DNA of 64,000 nt, from assembly GCA_018609195.1 (NCBI GenBank), contig JAHCSE010000004.1, positions 8,474-72,473 on the forward strand, read 5' to 3'. The notes below the pieces were generated by a model, which had not been told where the DNA came from, did not search any database, and saw nothing but the letters and a program-made list of their open reading frames with translations. Positions 14,527-60,689 of the stretch are shown here, piece after piece. Each line of letters opens with the position of its first letter. Positions within the stretch are counted from its first letter, which is position 1. The stretch comes from Patescibacteria group bacterium (GTDB lineage: Bacteria; Patescibacteriota; Minisyncoccia; Minisyncoccales; RBG-13-36-15). A program made the translations under genes and the position numbers.

Positions 14527-17379
14527 ATGAATAATAAAGAAGAATCAAAATATATTTCTCTTCAGGAAGCTACAAAATACTGTTCCTATTCTCAGGATTA
14601 TTTATCTTTGCTGGCGAGAACCGGAAAATTGAAGTCAGTAAAGATTGGCAGGAATTGGGTGACTACCAAAGAATGGATTGAGGAATATATAGAAAGAGTG
14701 AAAGAGTTTAATAATTATAATCGGTTACCCAAAAAGAATCTCATCAGGGTTGAAGTTAAATTCGAGGAAGAGGAAATCTCAGAAAGTCCGTCCCCATTAT
14801 CTGAGTCTTCAGAGGACACTTCACCTTTTCAAGAGTTGCCAAAAGTTAGACAACCAGAGCAAGCCCCCCTCCTTATTTTAGCTTTTGCCCTGGTTTTTGT
14901 TTTACTGATAGCTGCCGGAATTTTTGGTAAAGAGAATTTCAAAAATGCTTTTCAACAGATCGATCCTTATGTAACAGCAATTAATCAAGAAGTTGATGAA
15001 GGAATTGTCCAAGGATGGAAAGGGATTCAGAAAGGGGTTCAGGGGATTGGTGGAGCTGGAGATTTTGTTTTTGAAGGGGCAGCTAAATCTTTTGAAGAAA
15101 GTTTTGTTACGGTCTCTAGGGATGCTTATCAATTCTCCCGGGAAGCTGTTTCCATGTTTGGAGAAATTACGGTTCTCGGTTCAGTAGGGGCTAATCAATT
15201 AGCTGAGGTTTCTCAGGAAATTCCAAAATCAATTTTGGAATCGATAAAAAACATTGGCCAATCAATAGGCCAAGGAACAAAAAATATGGCCTCTGGTATT
15301 AGTTCTCGGCTCTCAGGTTTGGCTCAATTCGTCAGCCAGCTTTTCAAAAGAGAAACACTGGTTAAAGTAGAAAAAGAAGTAATACCCGAAGAGTTAGAAA
15401 AAGAAATTGCTAAATTGGCAGATGAGATTGGAAAATTAAAACTGAGAGGATTTCCAGAAAAAGGTCCTCAAGGTCCTCAAGGTTCGCCTGGACCTCCTGG
15501 TCCTCAAGGTCTCTCCGGGCCTCAGGGCCCCACTGGTCCTCAAGGTCCCTCGGGCCCTCCAGGACCCTCTGGGCCTCAAGGAGTGGCAACTCTAGCTGCA
15601 CGTTTTGCAAATTTAAGCACCAATACCGTTTCCATCGGAGGTAATTTTGATTCTCTCAACATAGGAAGAGGGAATCTTACCGTTGATTCAGCTGGAAGTC
15701 TTACTACCTCAGGTTCTCTTACTGTTTCAGGAACAATTACAGAAGGAGGAACCTCCCTAACCTCCAAATATATTGGTATTCCCTCAGGCTCTACTCAGGG
15801 AGATGTTCTCTATTACAGTGGGGCTGCTTGGGCAAGATTAGCAGCAGGGAGCTCTGGCCAATTTTTACAAACCCAAGGTTCCGGAGCTAATCCTGTTTGG
15901 GCAACAGTAACTTCTGGTTCTACTCTCTGGACAGACGGAGGCACTGTAACTTATCTAACCGCAATCTCTGATGATCTGGCCCTGGGAGGAACTGATTCCA
16001 CTGCTCCCTTCTTCATGGATGTTTCAACTGGGAGCCTGGCACTCACTGGTTCTCTCACCGGAACCGTCCTCAACTTAACTGGTCTCACCAACCAGATTGT
16101 TTTAGATTCAGACGGAACAAACACTGGAACCTTAACCATGGCTTCTCTTTCTGCTTCAAGAACCTGGACCTTACCTAATGCTACCGGCACTGTGATCACC
16201 GCAGGAAACCTCACTGATATCACTTCTGTTACCGGGTTAAACACCCAAAATGCCCTCCAACTTGGTCCCTTCGGTTCCTCAGCAGGAAACACAGGAGAGA
16301 TCAGGTTCTTAGAACTTGCTGCCAGTGGTACTAACTATGTAGGATTTAAAGCTCCTGATGCCATTACCACCAATGTAATTTGGACTCTTCCTGCAGCAGA
16401 TGGCACAGCAGATCAGGTCTTATCCACTAATAGTTCAGGAGTTCTCTCCTGGGCTACTGCCGGAGGTCTCTTTACTGATGGCGGAACCACCACCTATCTG
16501 ACCTCAACCACTGATGATTTAGCCCTTGGAGGCACAGATTCCACTGCTCCCTTCTTCATGGATGTTTCAACTGGGAATTTGACTCTCACAGGTGATCTTG
16601 CTGTCAACGGTGGGGATATTACTTCAACTGGCGCACTTACAATCACGCCTGGAGCTGGAACCAACTTCAATATTGCTCTTTCAACCACTGGAGATTTTGC
16701 CGTCAACACCAATCAACTCTTTGTTGATACCTCAACCGGCCGCGTCGGCATCGGGACGGCGAGTCCAGCCTTCAAACTTGATGTGTTAGGCAGTATCAGA
16801 GCCTCGGACGCCTTTCTGTTCTTCGACGGCTCCACTCAAGCTATGGCAAGCACTCCCAGTGGATTTTCCTGGCGTGTCACTACAGCTTCCTTCCTCCAGT
16901 TATTTAACGTAGCAGGAGAGGAAACAAATCCCCGAGGCGTTTTCTTCAAGCCTGACGGAACAAAGATGTATATTATAGGACTTATTGGTGATGATGTCAA
17001 TGAATATAACTTGTCAACTCCCTGGGATGTCTCAACTGCTTCGTTCCTCCAGTTATTTAGCGTATCAGGAGAGGAAACAGTCCCTACAGGCGTTTTCTTC
17101 AAGCCAGACGGAACAAAGATGTATGTTATAGGGTCTACTGGTGATGACGTCAATGAATATAACTTATCAACTCCCTGGGATGTCTTAACAGCTTCGTTCA
17201 ACCAGTTATTTAGCGTGGCAGGAGAGGAAACAGTCCCTACAGGCCTCTTCTTCAAGCCAGACGGAACAAAGATGTATGTTATAGGGCAAAGTGGTGTTGA
17301 TGTCAATGAATATAACTTATCAACTCCCTGGAATGTCTTAACAGCTTCGTTCCTCCAGTTATTTAGCGTATTAGGATAG
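14527..17379 (+). CDS. giant surface-fibre protein, N-terminal part (HTH, TM, collagen-like, tail-fibre-like repeats, 51-aa repeats); ends at in-frame TAG
   Basis: 950 codons. N-terminal excisionase-type HTH ([46 protein letters not shown]), TM helix [22 protein letters not shown], 13 G-X-Y triplets, repeated [16 protein letters not shown] blocks. Confidence 0.85.
15463..15579 (+). repeat. collagen-like G-X-Y tract (13 triplets)
   Basis: [39 protein letters not shown], read in the gene frame. Confidence 0.9.
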
Positions 17380-17634
17380 GAAATAGTCCCTACAGGCGTT
17401 TTCTTCAAGCCAGACGGAACAAAGATGTATGTTATAGGGACTGCTGGTGATGAGGTCAATGAATATAACTTATCAACTCCCTGGGATGTCTTAACTGCTT
17501 CGTTCAACCAGTTATTTAGCGTGGCAGGAGAGGACACAGCCCCTACAGGCGTTTTCTTCAAGCCAGACGGAACAAAGATGTATGTTATAGGAGATAATGA
17601 TGATGATGTCAATGAATATGACTTAGGCCTTATC
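16870..17634 (+). repeat. five tandem 153-nt (51-codon) repeats inside the giant gene
   Basis: Units start at 16870, 17023, 17176, 17329 and 17482. Consensus W[DN][43 protein letters not shown]. Confidence 0.9.
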
Positions 17635-19395
17635 ATAGAAGGCAACGTCGGCATTGGGACGACGGGGCCGGGGTCCAAATTAGATGTTACTACCAACTCT
17701 CTGGGCATTACCCAGACTAATACTTCTGGCCTGGCTCTGGTCAATACCACTGCTGCTGCAGCTGGGTTGCAGCAGATATCCCCAGCTCTAAGGTGGAGAG
17801 GGTTTGGCTGGAAAACCGGTGGTCCTAACCCTGCTAGTCAGTCAGTCGACTTTAGATCTTTCGTGAGGCCAATTCAAGGAGCAGCCGCTCCCACGGGTGG
17901 ATTAGATTTTCAAAGCAGTATTAATGGTGGAGCTTACAGTGACTTGTTGACGATTTTAAGCACGGGCAACGTCGGCATCGGGACGGCGAGTCCTATAAAA
18001 AAACTCTCAGTCGCCGGTAAATTTTATTCACACAAAGACGCTGATATCACAGCCAGAAATTACCTCACTGATAATTCCTGGGTCTCCAGAACTTCAGCCG
18101 CTGACAATAGTTGGTTTGCCATAACCTGGTCTCCGGAGCTTGGCCTGTTCGCCGCCGTAGCTGACTCCGGCACAGACAACCGGGTCATGACCTCTCCAGA
18201 CGGCATTACCTGGACAATCAGAACTTCAGCCGCTGACAATGATTGGCTTGGCATAACCTGGTCTCCGGAGCTTGGCCTGTTCGCCGCCGTAGCTGCCACT
18301 GGCACAGGCAACAGGGTCATGACCTCGGTCAGCTCAAAATTGTCGCCTATGGTGAGCGTAGTAGCTGCTACGGACGACCGCGAAACTTTGTGTATAGCTA
18401 TCGGTGGCGGTGTTGTTACTAGAGATGCCGCAGGCAATGACTGCGACATTTCCTCTGCACGCTTCAAATATAATATTGAGGAACTTGATATTAACGGCAT
18501 TGACATCGTGAATTCTTTTAAACCTTCGTCCTTTATTAAAAATTCTGATAAGACAAACAGAATACAATGGGGATTTATTGCTGAAAATATTGCGGTAAGC
18601 AACCCACACCTTGCTTTGTATGACGAAGATGGTCTTCCGTATTCAATATCAAAGTATGGAATTATGGCGGTACTCGCCAAATCCATTCAAGAAATCTCCC
18701 AGCGCATAGATCTAACAGAAGAAAGCTTGGCATTCTTACAGCCTGACAGCCAACAGCCAGAAGGAGATTCTTTACTTGATGGTTTTGTTCAAAAAATAAA
18801 ACAAGCCTTAGCTTCCCTGGGGCTCGTAATTGAAAATGGAATTTTACAGGTTCAGAAATTAGTCGCAGGTGTTATAGAGACCGAAAATTTGAAAGTGGGA
18901 AGCCCAGAGAAGCCAACTGGCGTTACTCTCTATGATGAGGTGAGTGGTCAGTCATATTGTATTAAGATACGAAACGGGCAGATGGTAAGTTATGAGGGAG
19001 AATGCCAAGCAGGAAACCCTTCTGACCAAGCACTAACTGAAGAGCCGCCGGTTGAACAATCACCAGTAGAGCCATCTTCTACCGAACCACCTCCCACTGA
19101 GCCCCCGGTAGAGCCATCTCCAGCTGAGGAACCTTCAGGAGAACAACCCCCCACTGAAGAGCCTACGATTGAAGAACCACCAGCTGGACAAGAACCTCTG
19201 GTTGAAGAACCGCCAATAGGGGAGCCTCCATTAGAAGAACCACTTGCTGGAGAATCACCACCTACTGAGGAGCCACCAATTGAGGAACCACCTCCTTTAG
19301 AAGAACCACCAGCTGAGGAGGAACCTCCAGCTGAGGAACCCATAGTTGAAGAACCAGTTGTTGAGGAACCTGTTCTGGAGGAGCCAGCTGAATAA
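17425..19395 (+). CDS. giant surface-fibre protein, C-terminal part (same frame as 14527..17379; frame open from 17380)
   Basis: 656 codons. Contains VGIGT..P..KL.V tail-fibre motifs, two BNR/Asp-box-containing repeats (SPDGITW), an S74-type intramolecular chaperone signature (SSARFKYNIEEL...WGFIAENI) and a P/E-rich tail. Confidence 0.8.
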   Translation: MYVIGTAGDEVNEYNLSTPWDVLTASFNQLFSVAGEDTAPTGVFFKPDGTKMYVIGDNDDDVNEYDLGLIIEGNVGIGTTGPGSKLDVTTNSLGITQTNTSGLALVNTTAAAAGLQQISPALRWRGFGWKTGGPNPASQSVDFRSFVRPIQGAAAPTGGLDFQSSINGGAYSDLLTILSTGNVGIGTASPIKKLSVAGKFYSHKDADITARNYLTDNSWVSRTSAADNSWFAITWSPELGLFAAVADSGTDNRVMTSPDGITWTIRTSAADNDWLGITWSPELGLFAAVAATGTGNRVMTSVSSKLSPMVSVVAATDDRETLCIAIGGGVVTRDAAGNDCDISSARFKYNIEELDINGIDIVNSFKPSSFIKNSDKTNRIQWGFIAENIAVSNPHLALYDEDGLPYSISKYGIMAVLAKSIQEISQRIDLTEESLAFLQPDSQQPEGDSLLDGFVQKIKQALASLGLVIENGILQVQKLVAGVIETENLKVGSPEKPTGVTLYDEVSGQSYCIKIRNGQMVSYEGECQAGNPSDQALTEEPPVEQSPVEPSSTEPPPTEPPVEPSPAEEPSGEQPPTEEPTIEEPPAGQEPLVEEPPIGEPPLEEPLAGESPPTEEPPIEEPPPLEEPPAEEEPPAEEPIVEEPVVEEPVLEEPAE

Positions 19396-22712: not shown

Positions 22713-22746
22713 CCCTAATAAAAAGAGTCTAATTAGGGATTTTTTG
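22713..22746 (+). terminator. terminator-like hairpin (possible attenuator) just upstream of the rpoB start
   Basis: CCCTAAT-aaaaagagtcta-ATTAGGG followed by aTTTTTTg. Ends 7 nt before ATG 22753. Confidence 0.45.
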
Positions 22747-22752
22747 TATTTT

Positions 22753-25700
22753 ATGGAGATTAAAATAAAAAATTTCGGGAAATCAAAAATTTCTCTCTTC
22801 CCTTCTTATCTATTAGAAACCCAGAAGGAAAGTTGGAAAATATTTTGGGAGAGAGATTTAAAAGAGCTCTTTTCTGAGATTTCTCCAATTAGAGATTATA
22901 CTAAAAAGGAGTTAGAGCTTTGGTTTTTGGATTATAAATTAGATCAGCCAAGATACAAATCAGATTTTGAAGCAAAACAGAACAATGATTCTTATGAAGC
23001 TCCATTAAGAGCGAAGACTAAATTAGTTAATCTCAAAACAAAAGAGATCAAAGAGCAAGAGGTTTTTTTAACTGATTTCCCCTTAATGACTGACAGGGGA
23101 ACTTTTATTGTAAATGGAGTAGAACGAGTGGTCATTTCCCAATTAATTCGCTCTCCCGGGGTATTTTTTACCAGCCAGTTAATTTCGGGCAAAAATTATT
23201 TTGGAGCAAAAATTATCCCCAATCGGGGAGCCTGGCTAGAATTTGAAACAGAAGGCTCAGGTTTAATTGGAGTGAAAATTGATAGAAAAAGAAAGTTACC
23301 AGTAACCACTCTTTTGAGGGCTCTGGGAATTGATAAAGACGCTCAAATAATTGATCTGTTTCAGGATGTAGATCGGGACCCAGAATTAAGTTTTATCAAA
23401 GAAACCTTACAGCGAGATCTAACTCACAACCAGGCTGAAGCTTTGGTTGAAATCTATAAGAGATTAAGGCCAGGAGATTTGGTTACCCCAGAAACTGCCA
23501 GAGAATTAATTGAAAATATGTTCTTTAATTTTGAAAGGTATGATTTGTCGAAAGTGGGAAGATGGAGAATGGGGCAAAGACTTCCAAAGTTAGAAGAAAA
23601 AACAAGAAGGGGAAAGCCGGTTTTAAAGAAAAAAGAAAAAATTAGAGGACATTCGGCTGAGGGCATTCGACAAGCTCACCGCCCTGAGTTTACCGAAGGG
23701 CTCAGTCGAAGCCTAGGAAATCCAGGAGAGGAGGGAATTTCAATAGAGGATAGAGTGTTGAAACCAGAGGATATTGTGGAAACCTTGAGAGAAATCATTA
23801 AGCTTAATAATACTGCTGAAGCTAAACCTGATCAAATTGATCATTTAGGTTCACGAAGGGTGAGAGTTCTTTCTGAGTTTTTACAAAATAGATTGAGAGT
23901 GGGATTAATGAGAATGGAAAGGATAATCAAAGATCGAATGTCAACCTTAGATTTAGCTACCTTGGCTCCAGTGCAGCTCATCAATCCACGGCCATTTATG
24001 GCAGTTGTAAAAGAGTTCTTCACCAACAGTCAGATTGCCCAATTTATGGATAATGAGAATCCTTTAGCGGAATTGGAGCACAAAAGAAGGTTATCAGCTA
24101 CAGGTCCAGGGGGCTTAACTAGAGAAAGGGCAGGTTTTGAGGTCAGAGATGTTCAGCCTTCCCATTATGGGAGAATTTGCCCCATTCAGACTCCTGAAGG
24201 CCCAAACATCGGTTTAGTGGGCCATTTAGCTTCTTTTGCCAAAATTAATCCCTATGGATTTTTGGAAGCCCCTTATTTTAAGGTGGAAAAGGGGAAAGTT
24301 ACTTCTGAAATTCGATATCTGAATGCCTATGAAGAAGAAAAATATAATATTGTTCCTGCTGGAATCTCAATTGGTGAAAAAGGAGATATTTTAGAACCAA
24401 AAGTTGAAGCCAGAATTAAAGGAGAGCCAGGCCAGATCGAAAAAGAAAAGATTGATTTTATTGATGTTTCTTCTACACAATCAATTTCCGTTGCCACTTC
24501 TCTTATCCCCTTTTTACAAAATGATGATGCCAATCGAGCTTTGATGGGTTCTAATATGCAGCGACAAGCCGTTCCTTTAATTAATCCTGAAATACCTTTT
24601 GTGTGCACTGGAATGGAGGAGAAAGTTGCCCAAGATTCTGGGCAGGAAATAGTGTCTGAAGGAGAGGGGCAGGTTGAAGAAGTAGATGGAGAAAAGATTA
24701 CTGTTTTATATAAAACTCCAAAGAAAAATCGTAAAACCTATCAATTAAAGACTTTCTTTAGAACCAATCAATATACCTGTTTCCATCAAAGGGCAATAGT
24801 TAAAAAAGGGAGAATGGTTAAGAAAGGAGAGATTTTAGCAGATGGAGCAGCGATTTCCAGAGGGTACTTGGCTTTAGGCAAAAATATTTTAGTTGCCTTT
24901 TTACCTTGGCGGGGAGGGAATTTTGAAGATGCTATTTTAATCTCCGAAAGATTGGTCAAAGATGATATCTTTACCTCAATTCATATTGACGACTTTAGTT
25001 GTGATATTAGAGAAACAAAGTTGGGACCTGAAATCACCACCGCTGATATTCCCAATGTGGGGGAGGAAAGATTGAAAGATCTTGATGAGGAAGGGATCGT
25101 TAGAATTGGGGCAGAGGTTGAACCTAATGATATTTTGGTTGGAAAAATTTCTCCCAAAGGTGAGACGGATTTGACGGCTGAAGAGAGATTACTTCGGGCA
25201 ATTTTTGGGGAAAAGGCGAGGGAGGTCAAGGATACTTCTTTACGAATGGAACATGGGAAAAAAGGAAGAGTAACTGAGGTTAAAATTTGGGAGAGAGAAA
25301 AAGGGGTGAAATTGGAGCCGGGAGTAATAAAAAGAATCCAGGTTGAAGTAGCTGAGATTCGAAAAATCCAAGCCGGTGATAAATTGACGGGGCGCCACGG
25401 AAATAAAGGAGTAGTTTCTAAAGTTTTACCTGATGAAGAAATGCCATTTTTAGAAGATGGAACTCCAGTAGACATTATCTTAAATCCTCTAAGTGTTGTC
25501 TCCAGAATGAATGTTGGTCAGGTCTTAGAGACTCATCTGGGATTGGCAGCTAAGAAACTGGGGTATATTGCTATCTCTCCGGCTTTAGCTGGAGCTACTG
25601 AGGAAGATATCAAAGAAGAGCTAAAAACAGCTTCTCTTTCTGAGGATGGTAAATTTACTCTCTATGATGGAAGATCTGGGGAGCCTTTTGAGGAGAAAAT

Positions 25701-26112
25701 TACAGTTGGGTATATTTACATGATGAAATTAATCCATATGGTGACAGATAAAATCCATATGCGCTCCATTGGTCCTTATTCTTTAATTACCCAGCAACCT
25801 TTGGGAGGGAAAGCCCAGTTTGGAGGACAGAGATTTGGAGAAATGGAAGTCTGGGCTTTAGAAGGGCATGGAGCTGCCAGTACTCTTCAGGAAATGTTGA
25901 CTATTAAATCTGATGATGTTCCAGGAAGAGCCGCTACCTATGAAGCAATCTTGAAAGGAGAACTAATAAAACCTCCCAGTCTGCCCGCTTCCTTTAATTT
26001 ACTAATCAGTGAATTAAAATCCCTTGGATTAAATGTAGAAGTGAAGGAGAAACCACCGCAAGAAAAATCCGAAATTCGAAATCCTAAATTCGAAACAAAT
26101 CCTAAATTATAA
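22753..26112 (+). CDS. rpoB: DNA-directed RNA polymerase subunit beta
   Basis: Conserved blocks include FMDNENPLAELEHKRRLSATGPGGL, GDKLTGRHGNKGVVS and QRFGEMEVWALE. ATG 22753 is preferred over TTG 22744. Confidence 0.95.
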   Translation: MEIKIKNFGKSKISLFPSYLLETQKESWKIFWERDLKELFSEISPIRDYTKKELELWFLDYKLDQPRYKSDFEAKQNNDSYEAPLRAKTKLVNLKTKEIKEQEVFLTDFPLMTDRGTFIVNGVERVVISQLIRSPGVFFTSQLISGKNYFGAKIIPNRGAWLEFETEGSGLIGVKIDRKRKLPVTTLLRALGIDKDAQIIDLFQDVDRDPELSFIKETLQRDLTHNQAEALVEIYKRLRPGDLVTPETARELIENMFFNFERYDLSKVGRWRMGQRLPKLEEKTRRGKPVLKKKEKIRGHSAEGIRQAHRPEFTEGLSRSLGNPGEEGISIEDRVLKPEDIVETLREIIKLNNTAEAKPDQIDHLGSRRVRVLSEFLQNRLRVGLMRMERIIKDRMSTLDLATLAPVQLINPRPFMAVVKEFFTNSQIAQFMDNENPLAELEHKRRLSATGPGGLTRERAGFEVRDVQPSHYGRICPIQTPEGPNIGLVGHLASFAKINPYGFLEAPYFKVEKGKVTSEIRYLNAYEEEKYNIVPAGISIGEKGDILEPKVEARIKGEPGQIEKEKIDFIDVSSTQSISVATSLIPFLQNDDANRALMGSNMQRQAVPLINPEIPFVCTGMEEKVAQDSGQEIVSEGEGQVEEVDGEKITVLYKTPKKNRKTYQLKTFFRTNQYTCFHQRAIVKKGRMVKKGEILADGAAISRGYLALGKNILVAFLPWRGGNFEDAILISERLVKDDIFTSIHIDDFSCDIRETKLGPEITTADIPNVGEERLKDLDEEGIVRIGAEVEPNDILVGKISPKGETDLTAEERLLRAIFGEKAREVKDTSLRMEHGKKGRVTEVKIWEREKGVKLEPGVIKRIQVEVAEIRKIQAGDKLTGRHGNKGVVSKVLPDEEMPFLEDGTPVDIILNPLSVVSRMNVGQVLETHLGLAAKKLGYIAISPALAGATEEDIKEELKTASLSEDGKFTLYDGRSGEPFEEKITVGYIYMMKLIHMVTDKIHMRSIGPYSLITQQPLGGKAQFGGQRFGEMEVWALEGHGAASTLQEMLTIKSDDVPGRAATYEAILKGELIKPPSLPASFNLLISELKSLGLNVEVKEKPPQEKSEIRNPKFETNPKL
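23651..23716 (+). repeat. GC-rich mini-insertion in rpoB (encodes about SAEGIRQAHRPEFTEGLSRSLG)
   Basis: Locally GC-rich with TTCGAC...GTCGAA pairing. Shares the 15-mer CATTCGACAAGCTCA (23664-23678) with the intergenic palindrome at 59149-59163. Confidence 0.7.
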
Positions 26113-26192
26113 TGTTCCAAACGTGTTTGGGATTTGGAAAATTAGAAAATTCGAATTTGTTTAGGATTTAGATATTAGAATTTAGAATTTTA
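26066..26192. repeat. AT-rich word-palindrome element, copy 1 (rpoB 3' end to rpoC start)
   Basis: Left words aaatccgaaattcgaaatcctaaattcgaaacaaatcctaaa, centre CCAAAC-gt-GTTTGG, right words ttcgaatttgtttaggatttagatattagaatttagaa. Homologous to 60556-60684. Confidence 0.8.
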
Positions 26193-26196
26193 AATT

Positions 26197-29100
26197 ATGC
26201 GTGTAGCTGACCTTGAATCAATAAAAATAAAATTAGCATCCCCAGAAGAAATTTTGTCTTGGTCAAAAGGGGAGGTGACAAAACCTGAGACCATTAATTA
26301 CCGAACCCAGAGGTCAGAAAAGGATGGTTTATTTGATGAGAAAATCTTCGGACCCGTAAAAGATTATGAATGTTATTGTGGGAAGTATCGAAGGATTCGT
26401 TACAAAGGAATAATCTGTGATCGCTGTGGAGTGGAGGTGACAAAGTCTCAAGTGAGAAGAGAAAGGATGGGTCATATAAAATTAGCAGCTCCAGCTTCTC
26501 ATATTTGGTTTTTACGGGGGGTTCCTTCCAGAATAGGAATGGTTTTGGGTATTCCAATGCTCCAACTAGAAAGAGTGATTTATTTTGCAGCCTATATTAT
26601 TACTAAAGTTAACAGAGAAAAAAGGAAGGAAGTTTTACAAGAAATTGAAAGAGAGTACAAACAAAAATTAAGAAGTTTAAAATCTGAGACAAAAAAGAAA
26701 AAATCTTCTTCGACAGACTCCCGCTCCAAAGGAACGAAGCTCGCCTCTCGTGAGGCGGCAGGACGAGTTCCTTCTTTGGAATCAAGAACTCAAGCTCTTC
26801 AGACAGCTAAAGAGAAAGCGAGAGGGGAAGTTTTAGGGTTAGATATCCTAAAAACTCTTTCTGAGGTAGATTATCATAATCTCTCTCTAAAATATGGAGA
26901 AATTTTTGAAGCAGGAACGGGAGCTGAAGTTTTAAGGAAGATCTTTGAAGAGATTGATCTGGCAAAGACCATAGATCCGCTAAAAAAAGAAGCCAAAGAG
27001 GCTTCTTCCCTCAATCAAAGGAAAATTTTAAGAAGATTGCAGTTTCTCCGGGAAATGCTAAAAGCCAAAATTCGACCAGAATGGATGTTTTTAACAATTT
27101 TACCAATTTTACCTCCTGATTTGAGACCTATGGTTCAATTAGATGGGGGAAGATATGCCTCTTCTGATTTAAATGATCTTTATCGCAGGGTGATTAACAG
27201 AAATAACCGGCTCAAATATTTACTAGAAGTTAAAGCTCCTGAGGTTATTGTTAGAAATGAAAAAAGAATGCTGCAAGAAGCAGTTGATGCCTTAATTGAT
27301 AACAGTATGCGAAAAGGGACCACTACCCTAGCTACCACCGGGGGAAGGAGGCTTTTGAAATCGTTAGCTGATATGCTCAAAGGGAAACAAGGGAGATTTA
27401 GGCAGAATCTTTTAGGAAAGAGAGTAGATTATTCTGGAAGATCGGTAATTGTGGTAGGGCCTGAATTGAAATTTAATCAAGTAGGTCTTCCGAAGAAAAT
27501 GGCCCTGGAATTATTCAAACCCATGGTCATTCAAAAAATCTTAGCAAAGGAATTAGCTTATAATGTTCGGGGAGCCTCAAGGTTAATTGAACAAGAAACT
27601 GATGAGGTTTGGGAGAGTTTAGAAGAGGTGGTTAAGGATAAATTGGTCTTGCTCAACCGAGCTCCAACCTTACATCGATTGGGTATTCAGGCTTTCCAAC
27701 CAATCTTAATTGAAGGAGAGGCAATGAGAGTTCACCCTTTAGTTTGTAAGGCCTTTAATGCCGATTTTGATGGCGACCAGATGGCAGTGTATTTACCCCT
27801 ATCTAAAGAAGCTCAAAAGGAAGCTAAAGAGATAATGTTATCAAGTCTTAATTTGTTAAAACCTGCTACCGGTACTCCCATTGTTTCCCCGGAGCAAGAT
27901 ATTGTTTTGGGTTGCTATTGGGTAACTAAAATTAAAGACTACACCGTTCCTGGAGCAATGGGGGAGGGAAAAGTCTTTGGATCTCAAGGTGAAGCTATTT
28001 TAGCCTATGACACAGGCATTATTGATTTGAGAGAAAAAATTAAGGTCAGACTACAATCCATCCACCCACGCACCACCTCCGGTCAGCCCGAAAAATCGGG
28101 AATGATTATAGAAACCTCGGTGGGGAGAATTCTTTTTAACCAAACCTTACCTCTTGAGCTCCCGTTTATTAATGAAGAAATCAATGGAAAGAAGCTAGAG
28201 AAGATAGTGGGTTTGATAATTGGCAAAATAGGGATTGATCTGACCCACATATATTTAGATAAAATTAAAAATTTAGGATTTGAAATGTCTACCAAATCAG
28301 GTATTTCTTGGGGAATGACAGATTTAATTACCCCTCCAGGGAAAGGGAAAATAATTAAAGACGCAGAGAAAGAGATTGAAGTAATAGATAAACATTATAA
28401 AAAAGGGTTATTATCAAGAGATGAAAAAAGAATTCAGGCTATTGAAGTTTGGCAGAGAGCAAAATTAGAAATTGAAAAATTAGTTCCCAAAACTTTGCCT
28501 GAATTGGGGCCAGTGCATTATATTATTTCTTCTGGGGCTAGGGGGTCCTGGGTACAGACTGTGCAGATGGCTGGGATGAAAGGATTGGTGATTAATCCCT
28601 CAGGTCAGATTATTGAGCTACCGGTTAAGAATTCTTACAAGGAAGGATTTAGTATTTTGGAATATTTTATTTCTACCCATGGAGCAAGGAAAGGTACAGC
28701 AGATACCGCCTTGAGAACTTCAACTGCGGGGTATCTGACTCGAAGACTAGTTGACGTTGCTCATGAAATGATAATTAGTGAAGAAGATTGCCGAGATAAA
28801 AAGGGAATGACGATTTTTAGAGAAGATGCTACAGATCTTGGTCAAAATCTCCTTTTTAAGATTTTGGGAAGAATATCTTTACAAAATATAACAGCCAAAC
28901 AGCCAGGCGCAAAAGTTGTAAAGCTAAAGGTTAGAAGGCTGATTGTGAAAGAAGGAGAAATCATCGATTGGGATAAGGCAGATCTCATCTCAAAAGCTGC
29001 AATTGAAAAATTACAAGTTCGCTCTCCTCTTAGTTGCAAAAGTTTACAAGGAATTTGTCAAAAGTGTTATGGTTGGGACTTAGGCTTAAATCAGCTCATT

Positions 29101-29931
29101 AAATTAGGAGAAGCGGTAGGAGTGGTGGCAGCCCAGGCCATTGGAGAACCTGGTACCCAGTTGACGATGAGAACTTTCCATATGGGAGGGGTAGCGGGGG
29201 AAGGAGATATTACTTTAGGATTGCCTCGGGTGGAAGAGATTTTTGAAGCAAGACCTCCGAGTTTGGAAGCTCCGATTTCAGTTGCTGAAGGGAAGGTAAT
29301 TGATATTACTCCAGAAAGAGTGTTGAGAATAAAAATAAAAAATAACCTCCGTGAACTGCGGTTGAAGAAGAAAAAGAATGCAATTTTAGATTATAAAATT
29401 GCGGATAGACAGGCGATATTAGTTAAAAAAGGGGAGGAGGTGAAAAAGGGTCAAACTCTAGCTGAGGGTAATTTAAATTTAAAAGAATTATATAAATTGA
29501 CGGGGGATCACAACACTCAGAGATATATTATTAAAGAGATTCAAAAAATCTATGTTTCTCAAGGAGCAGTTATTCACGATAAACACCTGGAAGTGATAAT
29601 TCGACAGATGTTTTCTCGATTGAGGATTTTAGATCCAGGAGCCACAGATTTTACTGCCGGAGAAATTTTAGGGAAAGCAAAGGTTCTTCAAGAGAACCTC
29701 CGATTAAAAAAAGAGAAAAAAAGAATAATTTCTTTTCAACCAATTCTATTAGGAATTTCTAAGGTAGCTCTGACGACTGATTCATTTTTATCTGCAGCAT
29801 CTTTCCAGGAAACTTCCCGAGTTTTGATTAAAGCTGCAATGGAAGGAAAATCTGATCAATTAAAGGGATTGAAAGAGAATGTTATAATAGGAAAGCTAAT
29901 CCCAGCTGGAACTGGTTTTAAAAAACAGTAG
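26197..29931 (+). CDS. rpoC: DNA-directed RNA polymerase subunit beta'
   Basis: Zn-binding CYCGKYRRIRYKGIICDRCGVEV, catalytic NADFDGDQMAV, trigger-loop and bridge-helix regions. Confidence 0.95.
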   Translation: MRVADLESIKIKLASPEEILSWSKGEVTKPETINYRTQRSEKDGLFDEKIFGPVKDYECYCGKYRRIRYKGIICDRCGVEVTKSQVRRERMGHIKLAAPASHIWFLRGVPSRIGMVLGIPMLQLERVIYFAAYIITKVNREKRKEVLQEIEREYKQKLRSLKSETKKKKSSSTDSRSKGTKLASREAAGRVPSLESRTQALQTAKEKARGEVLGLDILKTLSEVDYHNLSLKYGEIFEAGTGAEVLRKIFEEIDLAKTIDPLKKEAKEASSLNQRKILRRLQFLREMLKAKIRPEWMFLTILPILPPDLRPMVQLDGGRYASSDLNDLYRRVINRNNRLKYLLEVKAPEVIVRNEKRMLQEAVDALIDNSMRKGTTTLATTGGRRLLKSLADMLKGKQGRFRQNLLGKRVDYSGRSVIVVGPELKFNQVGLPKKMALELFKPMVIQKILAKELAYNVRGASRLIEQETDEVWESLEEVVKDKLVLLNRAPTLHRLGIQAFQPILIEGEAMRVHPLVCKAFNADFDGDQMAVYLPLSKEAQKEAKEIMLSSLNLLKPATGTPIVSPEQDIVLGCYWVTKIKDYTVPGAMGEGKVFGSQGEAILAYDTGIIDLREKIKVRLQSIHPRTTSGQPEKSGMIIETSVGRILFNQTLPLELPFINEEINGKKLEKIVGLIIGKIGIDLTHIYLDKIKNLGFEMSTKSGISWGMTDLITPPGKGKIIKDAEKEIEVIDKHYKKGLLSRDEKRIQAIEVWQRAKLEIEKLVPKTLPELGPVHYIISSGARGSWVQTVQMAGMKGLVINPSGQIIELPVKNSYKEGFSILEYFISTHGARKGTADTALRTSTAGYLTRRLVDVAHEMIISEEDCRDKKGMTIFREDATDLGQNLLFKILGRISLQNITAKQPGAKVVKLKVRRLIVKEGEIIDWDKADLISKAAIEKLQVRSPLSCKSLQGICQKCYGWDLGLNQLIKLGEAVGVVAAQAIGEPGTQLTMRTFHMGGVAGEGDITLGLPRVEEIFEARPPSLEAPISVAEGKVIDITPERVLRIKIKNNLRELRLKKKKNAILDYKIADRQAILVKKGEEVKKGQTLAEGNLNLKELYKLTGDHNTQRYIIKEIQKIYVSQGAVIHDKHLEVIIRQMFSRLRILDPGATDFTAGEILGKAKVLQENLRLKKEKKRIISFQPILLGISKVALTTDSFLSAASFQETSRVLIKAAMEGKSDQLKGLKENVIIGKLIPAGTGFKKQ
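26725..26780 (+). repeat. GC-rich palindromic mini-insertion in rpoC
   Basis: TCCAAAGGAAC...GTTCCttcTTTGGA outer stem with CGCCTC-tcgt-GAGGCG inner hairpin. Encodes part of SRSKGTKLASREAAGRVPSLES. Confidence 0.7.
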
Positions 29932-33293: not shown

Positions 33294-33491
33294 TTATTTA
33301 GTAATATATGGAAGTAATCCAAGATAACGAGCCCTCTTTATTGCTCGAGCTAATTTTCTTTGATGAAAAGAACAGACCCCAGTTCTTTTTTTAGCTCTAA
33401 TTTTAGCTAAACCGGAAATAAATCTTCCTAAAAGTCTCGTATCTTTGAAATCGATTTCCTCTATACTCTTTTGGCAAAAATAACACTCCAT
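33294..33491 (-). CDS. rpsR: 30S ribosomal protein S18
   Basis: CYFCQKSIEEIDFKD...FISGLAKIRAKKRTGVCSFHQRKLARAIKRARYLGLLPY. ATG 33491 (MECYFC) is preferred; the track start at 33542 extends into a palindromic spacer. Confidence 0.85.
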   Translation of the reverse strand: MECYFCQKSIEEIDFKDTRLLGRFISGLAKIRAKKRTGVCSFHQRKLARAIKRARYLGLLPYITK

Positions 33492-33612
33492 CCTTCGCTC
33501 CTCCCTTCGCTCGGAGCTACGGATGGCAAGCCATCCTTTCAATCCTTATAGCTCTTTACTTTATAAGGAGCGAAGGATGTCCTCCGTAGTTTTAGCGAAG
33601 GAGGGCAGATAA
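33491..33612. repeat. GC-rich palindromic element in the ssb-rpsR spacer
   Basis: TCCTTCGCTCC / GGAGCGAAGGA, CCCTTCGCT / AGCGAAGGAGGG, CTACGGA / TCCGTAG, and hairpin GGATGG-caag-CCATCC. Shares CCTTCGCTCG with 62281-62290. Confidence 0.7.
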
Positions 33613-34075: not shown

Positions 34076-34462
34076 TTATTCCCCTAATATTTCTTCGATT
34101 TTTTTCTCTATCTCCTCTAAAGCTACTTTTTCTTCTTTTTTTATTTTTGGTATTTTTGGCAACTCCATTTTTCTTGGTAGTTTTTTAGTTAAAATAAGGG
34201 AGCGGAGAATTTGATCATCAGAATCGATTTTTTTTGTTAGGTTTTCTATTTTTTCAGGTTCAAAATAAAAATTTAGACTGGTTAAGGAACCTTCAGACTC
34301 TTTTTTAATTTGATAAGCCAATTTTCTCCTTTTGGGATTTTTAATCTCGTCTAAAATTCCCCCCCCCTTTTTTATCAAATCAATTATCGTTTCTGAAAAT
34401 TCTTGTGCCTCCATTGTAGTTAATTTTGGAGAAATGAAATAAACAAGTTCGTAAAATTTCAT
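34076..34462 (-). CDS. rpsF: 30S ribosomal protein S6
   Basis: MKFYELVYFISP... is a typical S6 N-terminus. ATG 34462 is preferred, which avoids overlap with ychF. rpsF-ssb-rpsR order. Confidence 0.8.
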   Translation of the reverse strand: MKFYELVYFISPKLTTMEAQEFSETIIDLIKKGGGILDEIKNPKRRKLAYQIKKESEGSLTSLNFYFEPEKIENLTKKIDSDDQILRSLILTKKLPRKMELPKIPKIKKEEKVALEEIEKKIEEILGE

Positions 34463-34472
34463 CTTTGTAAAA

Positions 34473-35540
34473 TTATATCTTAAACTCAATTACATCCCCG
34501 TCTTCCACAACATGATCTTTCCCTACTATTTTTAGCCATCCCAGTTCCCGGGTTCTTGGCCAAGCCGCCCCTGGCGAGCCTCGCCCTTCGAGGCGGGAAC
34601 CCGCCTCTATTAATTTGTCCCAACTAATTACTTCAGCCTTTATGAATTTTCCCTCAAAGTCAGAATGGACTTTTCCCCCTGCTTCTGGGGCCCTGCTTCC
34701 TTTCATTACAGTCCAAGCTCTTGTTTCTTTTCCCCCAGCTATCGTATAAAAAGTAATGAGGTCAAGAATATCGTAGCATTTTAAAATAAGCTGGTCAAGG
34801 GAACTTGAAATTTCAAGCTCTTTTAATTCTGAAGGATTTAATTCAGAGATTTCCTCTTCTATTTTGAGATTAAGGGGAATGAAATTTTCTCCTTTAAATT
34901 CAACATTCTTTTGATTAATATTTAAGACCAACACTTTTGGTTTTGCAGTTAAAAATTGGTATTCTTGAATTTCTGATTTTTCTTCTTCGGTTAAATCAAG
35001 ATCTGCAATTAACTTTCCTTCAGATACCGAAGCTTTAATTTTTTCGAAGATACCGATTTTTTTTAAAGCAATTTTACTTGAGGATTTGGCATCTTTTTCA
35101 AGTTTTTTTATTAAATTTTCTAATGTTTCTAAATCCTTCATTAAAAGTTCAACCTTTATTATCTCAATTTCTTTTTCTGGATTAATCTCTCCAAGAACAT
35201 TTTCAACTTCAGGATCGTTAAAGGTTCTCACCACCTCTAAAATGGCATCACAATTTCTGATATGGGCCAAAAATTGATTTCCTAGACCCTCTCCTTTGTG
35301 AGCTCCTTTCACTAAACCTGCAATATCAATAAATTCAATAACAGTGGGAGTGACCTTCTCCGGTTTAATAATTTCAGCAATTTTTTCTAATCTTTCATCA
35401 GGGACAATAACTACTCCAACATTAGGATGGATAGTAGTGAAAGGGTAGGCAGCAATATCAATTTTCTTTTTGGTTAAAGCTTTAAATAAAGTTGATTTGC
35501 CGACATTAGGTAAACCGACAATACCTATTGAAAAACTCAT
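34473..35540 (-). CDS. ychF: ribosome-binding ATPase YchF
   Basis: 355 aa. G1 GLPNVGKSTLFKALT, DIAGLVKGAHKGEGLGNQFL, C-terminal TGS-like VVEDGDVIEFKI. Confidence 0.9.
   Translation of the reverse strand: MSFSIGIVGLPNVGKSTLFKALTKKKIDIAAYPFTTIHPNVGVVIVPDERLEKIAEIIKPEKVTPTVIEFIDIAGLVKGAHKGEGLGNQFLAHIRNCDAILEVVRTFNDPEVENVLGEINPEKEIEIIKVELLMKDLETLENLIKKLEKDAKSSSKIALKKIGIFEKIKASVSEGKLIADLDLTEEEKSEIQEYQFLTAKPKVLVLNINQKNVEFKGENFIPLNLKIEEEISELNPSELKELEISSSLDQLILKCYDILDLITFYTIAGGKETRAWTVMKGSRAPEAGGKVHSDFEGKFIKAEVISWDKLIEAGSRLEGRGSPGAAWPRTRELGWLKIVGKDHVVEDGDVIEFKI
34548..34604 (-). repeat. GC-rich nested-palindrome mini-insertion in ychF (57 nt, encodes about RLEGRGSPGAAWPRTRE)
   Basis: CGGGTTC...GAACCCG, TTGGCCAA, CCGCC...GGCGG, GGCGAG-c-CTCGCC. 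Contains the exact 22-mer shared with ligA. Confidence 0.8.
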
Positions 35541-39377: not shown

Positions 39378-39425
39378 CTTTCGGCTAGCCTCTTCTTTTT
39401 TATTTCCACACTCGCTTGGTCTTAA

Positions 39426-39607
39426 TGTACCAATTCGTCGCTCGCCCTCATCCAGCCTTACGGCTGGCCCGAGCACATAAATTATGTGCTCGGTTCGGGC
39501 TCGCTCCCCAGACACCCTCGGTTTCTGGCGTTCGTCGCTTCGCTCCTCACTGTTTTCCTACACGGGAAAACACCCAGTTTTCCCGACCCCTTTCTGAAGA
39601 ATGGTAC
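39426..39607 (+). repeat. structured repeat family, copy B
   Basis: 5' domain with hairpins CCAGCCTTACGGCTGG and CGAGCACATAA-at-TTATGTGCTCG. Then CCAGACACC-ctc-GGTTTCTGG, CTGTTTTCCTACACGG, GGGAAAAC-accca-GTTTTCCC and CCGACCCC. Ends pair as TGTACCA / TGGTACA. Confidence 0.85.
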
Positions 39608-42272: not shown

Positions 42273-43628
42273 TTAATACCCAATCAAGGCCTTCCTTCTT
42301 AGTTTTCTATGGTAGCTTATTGCAAAACGGTGGGCTTCATCTCTCAGTTGTAAAATGAGATTGAAAATTGGGCGAGAAAGAATTTTTAGTAAAATGGGCT
42401 TCTTTCTGTTTTCTACATAAAGCTCATTTTTTCTCTTAGCTAAAGCTAAGACGCTGATTTTTGCTGATTTTAAGACTGATTTTCGCTGATATTTCTTAAG
42501 AACCTGTAAAGCTGCATTTAATTGGGCCTTGCCGCCATCAATTAACATTACATCTGGAAAAGGCCATTCAATATGCCTGAGCCTTCTTGATAAAATTTCT
42601 TTGAGCATTGCAATATCATTGGGTTTCTCCTCAATTTTTATTTTAAATTTCCGATAAAAATTTTTATCTGGCATGCCTTTTACAAATGTAACCATTGAAC
42701 CAGTAGCTTGTTTCCCTTGAATATTAGAGACATCATAGGCTTCAATTCGGGAAATTTGTTTCTTTGTTTTGAGAAGATTTTGCAGGATTTTTTGAATATC
42801 AGACCAATCTTTTTCTGGCATCAATTTTTCTTCCTTAAATATTTTAGCATGAGCAAAGACATTTTCCAAAGCTCTTATTTGATCTCTTATTTTAGCTGCC
42901 TTTTCAAAATCTTGGACTGAGCTTAAAAATTTCATTTCTTTTTTGAGGGTTCTTAAAACCGATTTTCTTTTCCCCTTCAAAACACTGATTACATATTTGA
43001 TATTTTTCCTGTATTCTTTTATATCAGGATCAGGCCCCGGACAAAGCCCTAAATTGCAATAAACACAGGGAGTTTTCGTGTGCGTTTTTGAGGTGTAGTA
43101 AGGGAAAACTCTCCTGAGAAATCGTAAAGTAAGCTTCAGCGGTCTCCCTATAACAAAAGGACCAATATAAATAGCTTTTGGGCTTGCCCGCCTAGTCCCG
43201 CCTCTTTTGGAAAGGGGCGGGATTTGGGTGGGTTGATGAGTGATAAAAATTCTTGGTAAATTTTCCTTTGTAATACCAATGTAAAAAAATTTTTTGTCAT
43301 CCCGCCAGATGACATTATATTTTGGCTGGTATTTTTTAATTAAATTTGCCTCTAAAATTAAAGCCTCAATTTCTGAGTCAGTTTTGAGGTATCCTACTTT
43401 TTGGACAAGATTTAAGAAAAGATTATCTCGAAAGCCTGGGTGTTGAAAATGATTCTTCACCCTTTCTCGGATATTTGAGGCCTTCCCAATATATAAGAAC
43501 CTTGACTTCGTCAAGAACCTTGAATGCTCCGCATTTAAAAATTCTCTACCTTGCTTAAAGGCATAAACCCCAGGACTTTTTGGCAAAATTTTAATGTTAT
43601 TTTTTGTGATGAATTTAAATTTCTCCAT
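42273..43628 (-). CDS. uvrC: excinuclease ABC subunit C (short form without C-terminal HhH2)
   Basis: 451 aa. GIY-YIG N-terminus (PGVYAF...LYIGKASNIRERVKNHF), UVR motif QDFEKAAKIRDQIRALENV, endonuclease domain ending RDEAHRFAISYHRKLR. Confidence 0.88.
   Translation of the reverse strand: MEKFKFITKNNIKILPKSPGVYAFKQGREFLNAEHSRFLTKSRFLYIGKASNIRERVKNHFQHPGFRDNLFLNLVQKVGYLKTDSEIEALILEANLIKKYQPKYNVIWRDDKKFFYIGITKENLPRIFITHQPTQIPPLSKRGGTRRASPKAIYIGPFVIGRPLKLTLRFLRRVFPYYTSKTHTKTPCVYCNLGLCPGPDPDIKEYRKNIKYVISVLKGKRKSVLRTLKKEMKFLSSVQDFEKAAKIRDQIRALENVFAHAKIFKEEKLMPEKDWSDIQKILQNLLKTKKQISRIEAYDVSNIQGKQATGSMVTFVKGMPDKNFYRKFKIKIEEKPNDIAMLKEILSRRLRHIEWPFPDVMLIDGGKAQLNAALQVLKKYQRKSVLKSAKISVLALAKRKNELYVENRKKPILLKILSRPIFNLILQLRDEAHRFAISYHRKLRRKALIGY
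43180..43232 (-). repeat. GC-rich palindromic mini-insertion in uvrC
   Basis: Plus-strand gggcttgcccgcctagtCCCGCCtcttttggaaagGGCGGGatttgggtgggt. Encodes about PPLSKRGGTRRASPK. Confidence 0.65.
43495..43523 (-). repeat. 18-nt-period direct duplication inside the GIY-YIG motif of uvrC
   Basis: AAGAACCTTGA cttcgtc AAGAACCTTGA on the plus strand, with palindrome CTTGAC-ttc-GTCAAG. Protein reads SRFLTKSRFL. Confidence 0.7.
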
Positions 43629-54123: not shown

Positions 54124-55179
54124 ATGGGGGTTTCTTTAAAAGAAAAAATGTTTTTTGCTGAACATTTATCCTTAATGATTAAAGGAGGGATTCCAATATC
54201 TGAGGCTTTGGAAATTTTAAAGTCCGAAGCTAAATCTAGAGGACTGAAAAGGGCTTTAAACGATATTTTAAAAAGAGTTTTGGAAGGGGAGAGATTAGAG
54301 AAGAGTTTTGAAAAGCATCCTCGAATTTTTGATAGATTTTTCAGAAATATAGTTCGGGTAGGAGAAGAATCAGGAACCTTAGAAGAGAATTTACGATATT
54401 TGGCTTCGCAAATTCAGAAGGACTATGAGTTAAAAAGAAAAGTGGTAGGGGCTTTACTCTATCCTCTCTTAGTCCTTGTTTTAGCTACTGTCATTATTTC
54501 GGTAGTCACCTTTTTTGTTATACCAAAGATAACTCCCCTTTTTCAGGCTCTGCCGCAAGCGGAGGCGGGGCTACCCTTCGCTACGGAAATTTTAATTTCC
54601 CTTTCCTCTTTTTTAAAACAGTTTTGGTTTTTAATAATCGCAGCTTTTATTTTCTTTGTCGTAATTTTTAAAATTTTGCAGAAAATAAGATTTATTAAAT
54701 TTTATTTTGATAAAATAAGCCTTTCTTTACCGTTTTTTGGTCAAATGTATAAAAATCTCGCGCTATCCAGGTTTTCTCGAAATCTATATACACTTTTGGG
54801 GAGTGGAATGCCAATTTTGGAAGCTCTGGAAATTTGCGCAGATTCGCTTCCAAATGAAATTCACAAAAGGAATGTAATGAAAGTGAGAGCAGGAGTAGAA
54901 AGGGGAGAAAAGATAAGTTCTGGTCTCAGAAAAAATCCCCAAAATTTCCCTCCGATTTTCTCAGAAATGGTCTTGGTAGGAGAGAAAACAGGTTCCCTAG
55001 AAGAAAGCCTTCTGTATCTCGCTGAATTTTATGAAAAAGAATTTGATACTACAATAAAAAATCTCTCGGGGTTGTTGGAACCTGTATTATTAATATTCGT
55101 TGGAATTTTTGTTGCCTTTGTGGCTTTCGCTATCATCACCCCAATTTATCAATTTACCTCTGGCCTCCGTATTCGTTAA
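54124..55179 (+). CDS. second PilC/GspF-family platform protein
   Basis: 351 aa. Duplicated GspF-type domains and 3 TM helices. Shorter N-terminus than the locus-1 PilC. Confidence 0.85.
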   Translation: MGVSLKEKMFFAEHLSLMIKGGIPISEALEILKSEAKSRGLKRALNDILKRVLEGERLEKSFEKHPRIFDRFFRNIVRVGEESGTLEENLRYLASQIQKDYELKRKVVGALLYPLLVLVLATVIISVVTFFVIPKITPLFQALPQAEAGLPFATEILISLSSFLKQFWFLIIAAFIFFVVIFKILQKIRFIKFYFDKISLSLPFFGQMYKNLALSRFSRNLYTLLGSGMPILEALEICADSLPNEIHKRNVMKVRAGVERGEKISSGLRKNPQNFPPIFSEMVLVGEKTGSLEESLLYLAEFYEKEFDTTIKNLSGLLEPVLLIFVGIFVAFVAFAIITPIYQFTSGLRIR

Positions 55180-57441: not shown

Positions 57442-57458
57442 TAAATGAAAAATTTAAA

Positions 57459-57926
57459 ATGAAAAATGAAAAATTAAAATCCTTTGGCCCTCAGTCTTTC
57501 AGATTCAGACTTCAGAAAGGTCTTACCCATCCAAATTTTGCGAAGCAAAACTCGGATGGGTTTATTGCCCTAATAACTATTTTAATAATTTTGGGTGCGG
57601 TTTTGTTAATTAGTTTGGGAATTTCTCAGCGTTCCTTTGGTGAAATTCAGATGAGTTTACAAAAATCACAGTCCTCCCAGGCATTTTATTTAGCCAATCT
57701 TTGTGCGGAAGATGCTTTAATGAAATTGAAAGAAGATAGTAATTATTTAGGGAATGAGACTATTACTATTGGAGAGGAATCTTGTCAGATTTTACCAATT
57801 GAAGGCCAATGGACAGTTAAAGTTTCAGCCAATTTTCAAAATCAAATAAGAAAAATAAAAATCGTTATCAGCCAAGTTAATCCAAAAATGATTATTGGTT
57901 CTTGGCAAGAGGTACCTGATTTTTAA
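57459..57926 (+). CDS. PilX-like protein with repeat-encoded N-terminal extension (start uncertain)
   Basis: Hydrophobic segment GFIALITILIILGAVLLISLGIS. The only in-frame starts (TTG 57420, ATG 57459) lie upstream of a word-repeat and of the 37-nt palindrome at 57525-57561. Confidence 0.45.
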   Translation: MKNEKLKSFGPQSFRFRLQKGLTHPNFAKQNSDGFIALITILIILGAVLLISLGISQRSFGEIQMSLQKSQSSQAFYLANLCAEDALMKLKEDSNYLGNETITIGEESCQILPIEGQWTVKVSANFQNQIRKIKIVISQVNPKMIIGSWQEVPDF

Positions 57927-60684: not shown

Positions 60685-60689
60685 AGGCT

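Follow-up and report, generated by a model that had tools for sequence, protein, structure and literature searches.

The DNA analysed here (the window) is a stretch of 64,000 nucleotides (nt) from a Patescibacteria group bacterium. It is AT-rich, with a GC content of 37%, and the best matches of its proteins carry the labels Parcubacteria, Pacebacteria or Patescibacteria. On the minus strand, at 34473–35540, lies ychF, the first gene in the cluster ychF-rpsF-ssb-rpsR; its last 17 nt overlap the rpsF open reading frame (ORF) as listed (34076–34489, TTG-initiated). Our subject is a GC-rich block within the C-terminal region of ychF, at 34548–34604, and the small hairpin repeat of which it contains a copy. 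The ychF product, a listed ORF of 355 amino acids, combines a P-loop GTPase domain (Pfam PF01926, MMR_HSR1, 5e-24) with a YchF_C domain (PF06071, 1e-24) and matches the YchF structures 8kie, 1jal and 2dby in the PDB over its full length (E of about 1e-83). The N-terminal P-loop GTPase, the C-terminal YchF_C/TGS region and the full-length structure similarity mark the predicted protein as YchF, the Obg-like ribosome-binding ATPase.

The block, CCGGGTTCTTGGCCAAGCCGCCCCTGGCGAGCCTCGCCCTTCGAGGCGGGAACCCGC, is 57 nt long and has a GC content of 75.4%, compared with 33.1% in the remainder of ychF. In the ychF frame, on the minus strand, it makes up exactly 19 codons, encoding AGSRLEGRGSPGAAWPRTR. An outer stem of 7 bp is formed by CGGGTTC (34549–34555) and GAACCCG (34597–34603); within it lie the stem TTGGCCAA (34556–34563), the stem CCGCC (34565–34569) with GGCGG (34592–34596) and an inner stem of GGCGAG (34573–34578), c and CTCGCC (34580–34585). 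The original prediction, which was made from the letters alone, had described the block as a nested palindrome of 57 nt, 19 codons in frame and GC-rich in an AT-rich gene. Direct reading of the sequence agrees on length, frame and composition, and all of the proposed stems are present; the single nested fold did not hold up, as the minimum-energy fold of the 73-nt stretch around the block consists of three adjacent hairpins. The folding z score of this stretch against dinucleotide shuffles is −3.2 as RNA and −2.5 as DNA. The outer 7-bp stem, which is located in ancestral codons, is unusual only in a nominal sense: in a post hoc test, 0.5% of composition-matched shuffles and 2.5% of window positions reached it. 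The block as a whole, with its stems and its recurring core, is more than chance.

We aligned the window YchF with its 119 best homologues, which are 67–75% identical and mostly 343–347 amino acids in length. The only extra residues in the window protein are RLEGRGSPGAA (residues 316–326; 11 codons, 33 nt), which sit between the conserved EAGS and W-x-x-A-R-E-x-G-W motifs; an insert at this site is absent from 117 of the 120 close homologues. The other 8 codons of the 57-nt block, encoding AGS and WPRTR, match residues in essentially all 119 homologues. An in-frame, GC-rich insertion in the conserved C-terminal (TGS/YchF_C) domain was therefore rightly proposed, and its size was overstated: 11 codons are extra and not ancestral to the YchF of the lineage, and the remaining 8 of the presumed 19 are ancestral.

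By alignment, codon view and comparison with the repeat skeleton, the inserted copy occupies 34564–34597 on the minus strand and reads C-CCGCC-TCGAAG-GGCGAG-G-CTCGCC-AGG-GGCGG-C on the coding strand, with its core at 34565–34596 and its flanking C residues (G on the plus strand) at 34597 and 34564. The net insertion of 33 nt is either 34564–34596 or 34565–34597, a one-C ambiguity, and the copy interrupts the Ser codon TC/N of the conserved EAGS/W (here and below, a slash marks the junction). The flanking ancestral codons carry parts of the stems described above. Upstream in the coding sense, E-A-G-(S) (GAG GCG GGT TC; 34598–34609, minus strand; alignment, codon view and fold) holds the GAACCCG arm (plus strand) of the outer stem, and its GAGGCGG pairs with the left arm CCGCCTC of the insert to give the first predicted hairpin. 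Outside the insertion on the other side, W-P-R-T-R-E-L-G (TGG CCA AGA ACC CGG GAA CTG GGA; 34539–34563, minus strand) bears TTGGCCAA and the second arm of the outer stem. Some ancestral codons are rare in the window, namely GCG (9%), CGG (8%) and CTG (6%), the last just outside the 57-nt block. In the protein, the 11 inserted residues are unmatched in Escherichia coli YchF (8kie), and the Pfam YchF_C match covers 95 residues for 83 profile positions. An AlphaFold model with a mean predicted local distance difference test (pLDDT) score of 73.7, in which the C-terminal domain is poorly modelled, shows residues 313–325 as a coil that links two helices; at residues 316–323 the pLDDT is under 50.

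The block had been treated as a one-off in ychF. It belongs instead to a dispersed repeat, with a second copy in ligA and others in many genes and spacers of other genomes. The ligA copy is canonical; it lies on the plus strand at 10909–10939 (core 10910–10938), reads C-CCGCC-AGA-GGCGAG-G-CTCGCC-AGG-GGCGG-C on the coding strand, and has the frame of the ychF copy, giving RQRRGSPGAA. A 22-mer, GGCGAGGCTCGCCAGGGGCGGC (10918–10939 in ligA; RGSPGAA), is shared exactly by the two copies, with 0 expected in shuffles. Compared with P0132, the homologue to which it is most similar in this variable linker, the window LigA is 10 residues (30 nt) longer here; the excess over E. coli LigA is about 28 residues. 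Elsewhere in ligA, at 11909–11952 (plus strand), the helix-hairpin-helix region has a 12-residue insert, SLPRRKPKAFIRG, encoded by a further, dissimilar GC-rich hairpin (CCCCG..GGAAGCC-GAA-GGCTTTC..CGGGG); this insert is found in 22 of 120 LigA homologues and is absent from the others and from E. coli LigA.

A scan for a 21-mer core of the repeat in one genome per GTDB species returned 29 loci, around 24 of which are in low-GC metagenome-assembled genomes (MAGs) and around 5 of which are chance matches in GC-rich genomes. The low-GC loci keep the entire skeleton, beyond the 21-mer itself. Their carriers are labelled as Patescibacteria (many classes), Melainabacteria, one Chlamydiae MAG and two ‘Gammaproteobacteria’ MAGs of 38% GC, and one Melainabacteria MAG has four loci over three contigs of 81–556 kb. 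A looser scan of metagenomes found at least 120 loci, largely from groundwater and sediment samples. Both scans demanded exact stems, and a covariance model of the element was dropped, as covariation among copies selected in this way is meaningless. Overall, more than 140 copies were found in MAGs and metagenome contigs of low-GC uncultured bacteria, within and between genes. We read the GC-rich block in ychF as a copy of a very small, dispersed hairpin repeat that is probably mobile, non-autonomous and carried as a tolerated passenger in a surface loop of the GTPase, and give this reading a probability of roughly three in four.

The 118 non-redundant canonical copies share the skeleton C-CCGCC-NNN-GGCGAG-G-CTCGCC-NNN-GGCGG-C; the wider definition of the unit allows S at the central position. 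At the two flanking positions, 115 and 117 of the 118 copies have C, and these bases show linkage with the central G, so that they are part of the unit and confer polarity on it. Further out, a T comes next in 60% of these copies at the 5′ end and an A in 52% at the 3′ end. One strand has purine-rich loops (GAA, AAA or AGA in one; AAG, AAA or AGA in the other), irrespective of the polarity of the skeleton, and about 80% of the copies from the 21-mer scan have loops of 3 nt. As single-stranded DNA, the unit is predicted to form a 5-bp stem, a 3 × 3 purine internal loop and an inner hairpin of about −10.7 kcal/mol; an alternative predicted fold has two CGCC-NNN-GGCG mini-hairpins. The ychF copy agrees with every skeleton position (C-CCGCC-loop-GGCGAG-S-CTCGCC-loop-GGCGG-C, including the fixed flanking C residues), and is 33 nt long because its left loop has 6 nt instead of 3. 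Units are tandem or clustered in some genomes, for example at locus L005 (1741–1808), at L021 (around 1462–1530) and at L070 (three copies). Those of L018 and L001 have a small extra palindrome within the left loop (CTGAAGTATTCAG and CAGTAAAACTG), suggestive of insertions within insertions or of growth of the loop.

Roughly a third of the copies (38 of 120) are housed in tandem heptamer arrays. The flanks of copies have a period-7 signal of 0.40, compared with 0.27 in controls, with other periods at background. The phase of the arrays is continuous across the junction (0.77 versus around 0.3) only when exactly 30 nt are removed, which gives a canonical net insertion of 30 nt, or ten codons. 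The junction ambiguity is 1 nt (a C), and the phase analysis leaves no longer target duplication. By three measures the unit is thus an addition that is a multiple of three: 33 nt in ychF and 30 nt in ligA relative to orthologues, and 30 nt from heptamer phase. There are no stop codons in any of its six frames. The window itself contains many heptamer arrays (7449–7635, 10939–10960, 26065–26190, 57443–57479 and 60551–60685), some apparently within ORFs, with units such as TTAGCTA, GTATCTG, AAATCCG, TTTAGAA, AAATGAA, AAATTCT, TTTAGGA and CCAACTA.

To describe placement, we counted non-redundant canonical copies in low-GC loci as intragenic if at least 80 codons of open frame extended on both sides. 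Thirty-five copies are intragenic and 75 have no long spanning frame; a further 18 with mixed loops were left unclassified. All three sense frames occur among the 35 intragenic copies. The strand with the purine loops is the coding strand in 30 of them and the opposite strand in 4, with both strands open in the remaining 1. The hosts include gatA (L131), and motifs flanking the copies suggest a GAPDH-like and a Mur-ligase-like frame for L019 and L010. Read from the non-purine strand, the unit would encode more hydrophobic peptides, such as PPLASLAFGG or RPWRASP, and selection for hydrophilic loops would be sufficient to account for the strand bias, short of proof. The original prediction had argued for selection on frame-preserving insertions. 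The 30:4 strand bias and the placement in a coil of low model confidence speak for selection of some kind; preservation of the frame is largely intrinsic to the element, given a canonical length divisible by three and six frames free of stop codons.

Other lineages carry relatives of the repeat in the same part of ychF. The L001 protein (P0058) has a 14-codon relative with identical junctions (GGTTC/CCGCC ... GGACGGC/TTGG) and partly decayed stems. At L029, from a Curtissbacteria MAG with a much more divergent YchF C terminus, the insert lies at the same site and in the same frame (ETGS/RPDGRGSPGAA/WQKAK) and has a left loop of 6 nt. A third copy, in L002 (P0010), is reversed and lies 12 nt upstream of the ychF site; its different position implies at least two independent gains in this loop of the protein. 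In a neighbour-joining tree of 120 sequences, the window YchF and P0058 are not sisters, and their common ancestor spans all 120. The copies at the identical site may reflect either a hot spot or one old gain with many exact losses: the long loops that they have in common speak for shared descent, the tree for recurrence. A search with the C-terminal peptide for further insert-bearing YchF proteins gave 18 candidates, none of which has the insert.

How such a unit would spread can be outlined only conditionally. The element would be, or would have been, non-autonomous, spreading as a hairpin-forming piece of DNA and inserting beside a C, most often at T-C/A. By analogy with REP/RAYT systems and IS200/IS605, an enzyme provided in trans would probably act on it as single-stranded DNA. 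Within genes, copies would survive only where ten or eleven residues rich in Gly, Arg, Pro, Ser and Ala do no harm, and only in the orientation that places the purine-rich loops on the coding strand. In YchF, the insert would be a tolerated passenger and no functional part of the protein.

Several observations weigh against a mobile passenger. The stems are identical across phyla as labelled, unlike those of a decaying passenger, although this is partly an effect of ascertainment, given that exact stems were required; the taxon labels of the carrier genomes are those of the depositors. No candidate enzyme came to light: with one Y1 transposase protein as the query, tblastn gave no match to the window or to 848 kb of loci that bear the element. 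No copies were found by the scan in viral contigs, phages or plasmids. The GTAG or CGTC tag that defines REPs is absent from the flank profile of the 118 copies. No close relative offered an empty site: the nearest YchF is only around 75% identical, which leaves recent movement conjectural. Finally, the loops of every ychF copy are long and non-canonical, as would fit a single old insertion with many losses no less than repeated insertion.

A Y1/RAYT mobiliser was considered because L003 has a Y1 transposase gene (PF01797; 1848–2483) adjoining an insert-free ychF. This candidate was rejected: the gene is flanked by a different repeat, of the GGGACAGTCCC type, and has no homologue in the window or the 848 kb of loci. 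Its flanks (1760–1860 and 2440–2600) contain direct and inverted repeats of the GGGACAG(T/A)CC type in a REPtron-like arrangement that is unrelated to the ychF-insert repeat.

The insert might instead be an old, vertically inherited feature of YchF in some Patescibacteria, gained once before the split of Microgenomates and Parcubacteria, precisely lost many times and kept homogeneous in its stems by gene conversion from other copies, with no recent transposition. The window, L001 and L029 copies share the junctions GGTTC/CCGCC ... GGCGGC/YTGG and have long left loops (6, 6 and 11 nt), compared with the 3-nt loops of about 80% of 21-mer copies; in addition, the copies that were found through protein homology (L001 and L002) have decayed stems. 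However, such a history requires dozens of exact losses among the 120 homologues, conflicts with the separate gain implied by the reversed L002 copy and leaves the copies in unrelated genes unexplained. We consider it unlikely.

The hairpin could also be, or have become, a signal that acts in cis, as RNA or DNA, on the rpsF-ssb-rpsR genes downstream—a hairpin for mRNA stabilization or processing, a device for translational coupling or a protein-binding palindrome—kept because the listed start of rpsF follows around 75–110 nt downstream. Directly after ychF comes rpsF in the window, L001, L003 and L029; three lineages that are not sisters have a copy at this ychF site; the stems are kept at the nucleotide level and the predicted fold is significantly stable; and the 30:4 bias of intragenic copies would suit a role in RNA. 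That bias is, however, also explained by the more hydrophobic peptides of the other strand, and an identical unit lies in the middle of ligA, gatA and the GAPDH-like and Mur-ligase-like frames, as well as in many spacers that have no common neighbour. Furthermore, 117 of 120 YchF homologues do without the insert. At the gathering score, Rfam 15 returned only two tRNAs for the whole window, and in E-value mode only chance-level matches for 34380–34720, so that no match, including to ribosomal-protein leaders, supports a signal of this kind. The hairpin is not an intrinsic terminator, as no T-run follows it. An S6:S18 (rpsF) leader was rejected as a specific candidate, being unsupported by Rfam and sharing its unit with unrelated genes. 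A cis-acting role seems very unlikely to us.

A GC-rich patch due to chance, or an artefact of assembly or sequencing, has practically nothing in its favour as an account of the block beyond the origin of the window in a single assembly, and is refuted by the recurrence in ligA and by the GTDB and metagenome copies: shuffles lead us to expect zero matches, independent projects and assemblers have yielded this unit in more than 140 contigs, it lies in frame in conserved genes, and an identical YchF protein is recorded on two contigs and in four sources.

The best reading remains that of a miniature mobile repeat resembling REPs, Rickettsia palindromic elements (RPEs) and small dispersed repeats (SDRs), tolerated in a disordered loop and belonging to an apparently undescribed family. 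A full-text literature search found neither the core sequence nor a description from candidate phyla; its coverage was limited, and this is no proof of novelty. RPEs are reportedly around 100–150 bp in length, restricted to Rickettsia and inserted in frame in ORFs. Both they and the ychF-insert repeat are palindromic repeats dispersed in AT-rich, reduced genomes, and both lie in frame in conserved protein genes, where they add a surface segment without destroying the protein. In-frame insertion is thus shared; size and taxon are not, as the ychF-insert repeat is 30–33 nt long, a fixed multiple of three, very GC-rich and found in several phyla as labelled. RPEs are also mentioned in PMC3733652.

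REP/REPIN sequences are mobilized by RAYT transposases (Y1, HUH) and are tagged with GTAG or CGTC (PMC3733652, PMC3116915), this tetranucleotide being conserved at one end as a criterion of REPs; some are intragenic, notably in replication and repair genes (PMC3733652). The ychF-insert repeat resembles REPs as an imperfect palindrome of 20–40 bp in many copies. Repair and replication hosts are a further likeness: ligA has a copy, and uvrC a GC-rich hairpin of other sequence. In contrast to REPs, the tag is at neither end, where the 118 copies have only T-C (5′) and C-A (3′); no RAYT was seen nearby, with one Y1 query over the window and the 848 kb of loci; and the copies are mostly single rather than in inverted pairs, with about a quarter deep inside genes.

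The closest analogues in behaviour would be the SDRs of Nostoc and its relatives, which are reportedly 21–27 nt long and lie in tandem heptamer repeats. Both families would then form hairpins, fall far below MITE size, be embedded in heptamers and be present or absent at orthologous sites, and neither is known to have an enzyme of its own. The ychF-insert unit is slightly larger (30 nt versus 21–27 nt), and its carriers are Patescibacteria, Melainabacteria and others, with no photosynthetic cyanobacteria among the 21-mer matches. To our knowledge, neither a codon-phased length of 30 nt nor a coding-strand bias has been described for SDRs.

Double-hairpin elements have reportedly been found in the mitochondrial DNA of Allomyces. 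These elements and the mitochondrial GC clusters of yeasts (PMC4478555) are also short GC-rich hairpins in very AT-rich genomes, occasionally in frame in protein genes. They differ in being organellar, unrelated in sequence and without heptamer association, which limits the comparison to analogy. MITEs (Correia/NEMIS, RUP, Nezha and others) are 70–300 bp in length, with terminal inverted repeats of 15–30 bp and target-site duplications. The ychF-insert repeat would share with them a non-autonomous nature and has inverted symmetry; by contrast, its whole unit is 30 nt, without terminal inverted repeats and with a junction ambiguity of at most 1 nt, which sets it outside the MITEs. Three properties go beyond all of these known examples: the codon-phased 30-nt unit, the near-identity across phyla as labelled and the recurrence at one ychF site.

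Other hairpins and repeats are present in the window. The strongest hairpin (−29.5 kcal/mol; CCCGCCTCTTTTGGAAAGGGGCGGG) falls in the part of uvrC that separates the GIY-YIG from the UVR domain, at 43189–43232 on the minus strand (residues ~133–147); it, too, resembles a GC-rich insertion in frame, from another sequence family. GC-rich hairpin patches also lie within long ORFs, at 26729–26772 (in a 1,244-amino-acid ORF, 26197–29931) and 23661–23704 (in a 1,122-amino-acid ORF, 22744–26112), and at 8145–8188 and 54545–54588; the two large ORFs are putative RNA polymerase subunits. No common family emerged when the other GC-rich hairpins of the window were compared with the element-bearing loci. 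A different repeat family forms GC-rich palindromic patches of CCTTCGCT- and AGCGAAGG-type motifs at 33483–33600 (the ssb-rpsR spacer), 39425–39553 and 62282–62321. The patch in the spacer makes the longest rpsR ORF begin too early (MKGWLAIRSSERREERR...); the true rpsR start is probably MECYFCQ. Long internal repeats occupy the ORFs at 14527–17379 and 17425–19395: a collagen-like GPxGPx tract with units of 9, 18 and 36 nt (15461–15581), 4.9 units of 153 nt (16882–17625), units of 132 nt (18087–18326) and PE-rich repeats of 15–48 nt (19171–19387).

More tentatively, and with somewhat less than even confidence, we suggest that the repeat represents an undescribed family of currently or recently active, codon-phased mobile hairpins. 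Its ten-codon unit, open in six frames, would be shared with hardly a base changed by Patescibacteria, Melainabacteria and other low-GC groundwater bacteria and spread by trans-acting machinery, possibly together with heptamer arrays, providing a general source of loop insertions in the conserved proteins of these reduced genomes that includes the repeated hits at the ychF site.

Bacteria of the candidate phyla are known for odd insertions in conserved genes, yet no source of their short protein insertions is known to have been established. By its nature, a 30-nt repeat that keeps the frame and lacks stop codons would offer a simple way of generating new surface loops in essential proteins. 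Such copies inflate the apparent divergence of proteins and can mislead alignments, gene calling and phylogenies based on markers such as ychF, ligA and gatA. Through the heptamer arrays, a long-standing puzzle from cyanobacteria, the reported occurrence of SDRs within heptamer repeats, is connected to a much wider range of organisms. Near-identity across phyla would point to a mobilizing enzyme that is yet to be found or to frequent exchange among groundwater bacteria, and the unit offers a clean sequence signature with which to seek the mobilizing machinery.

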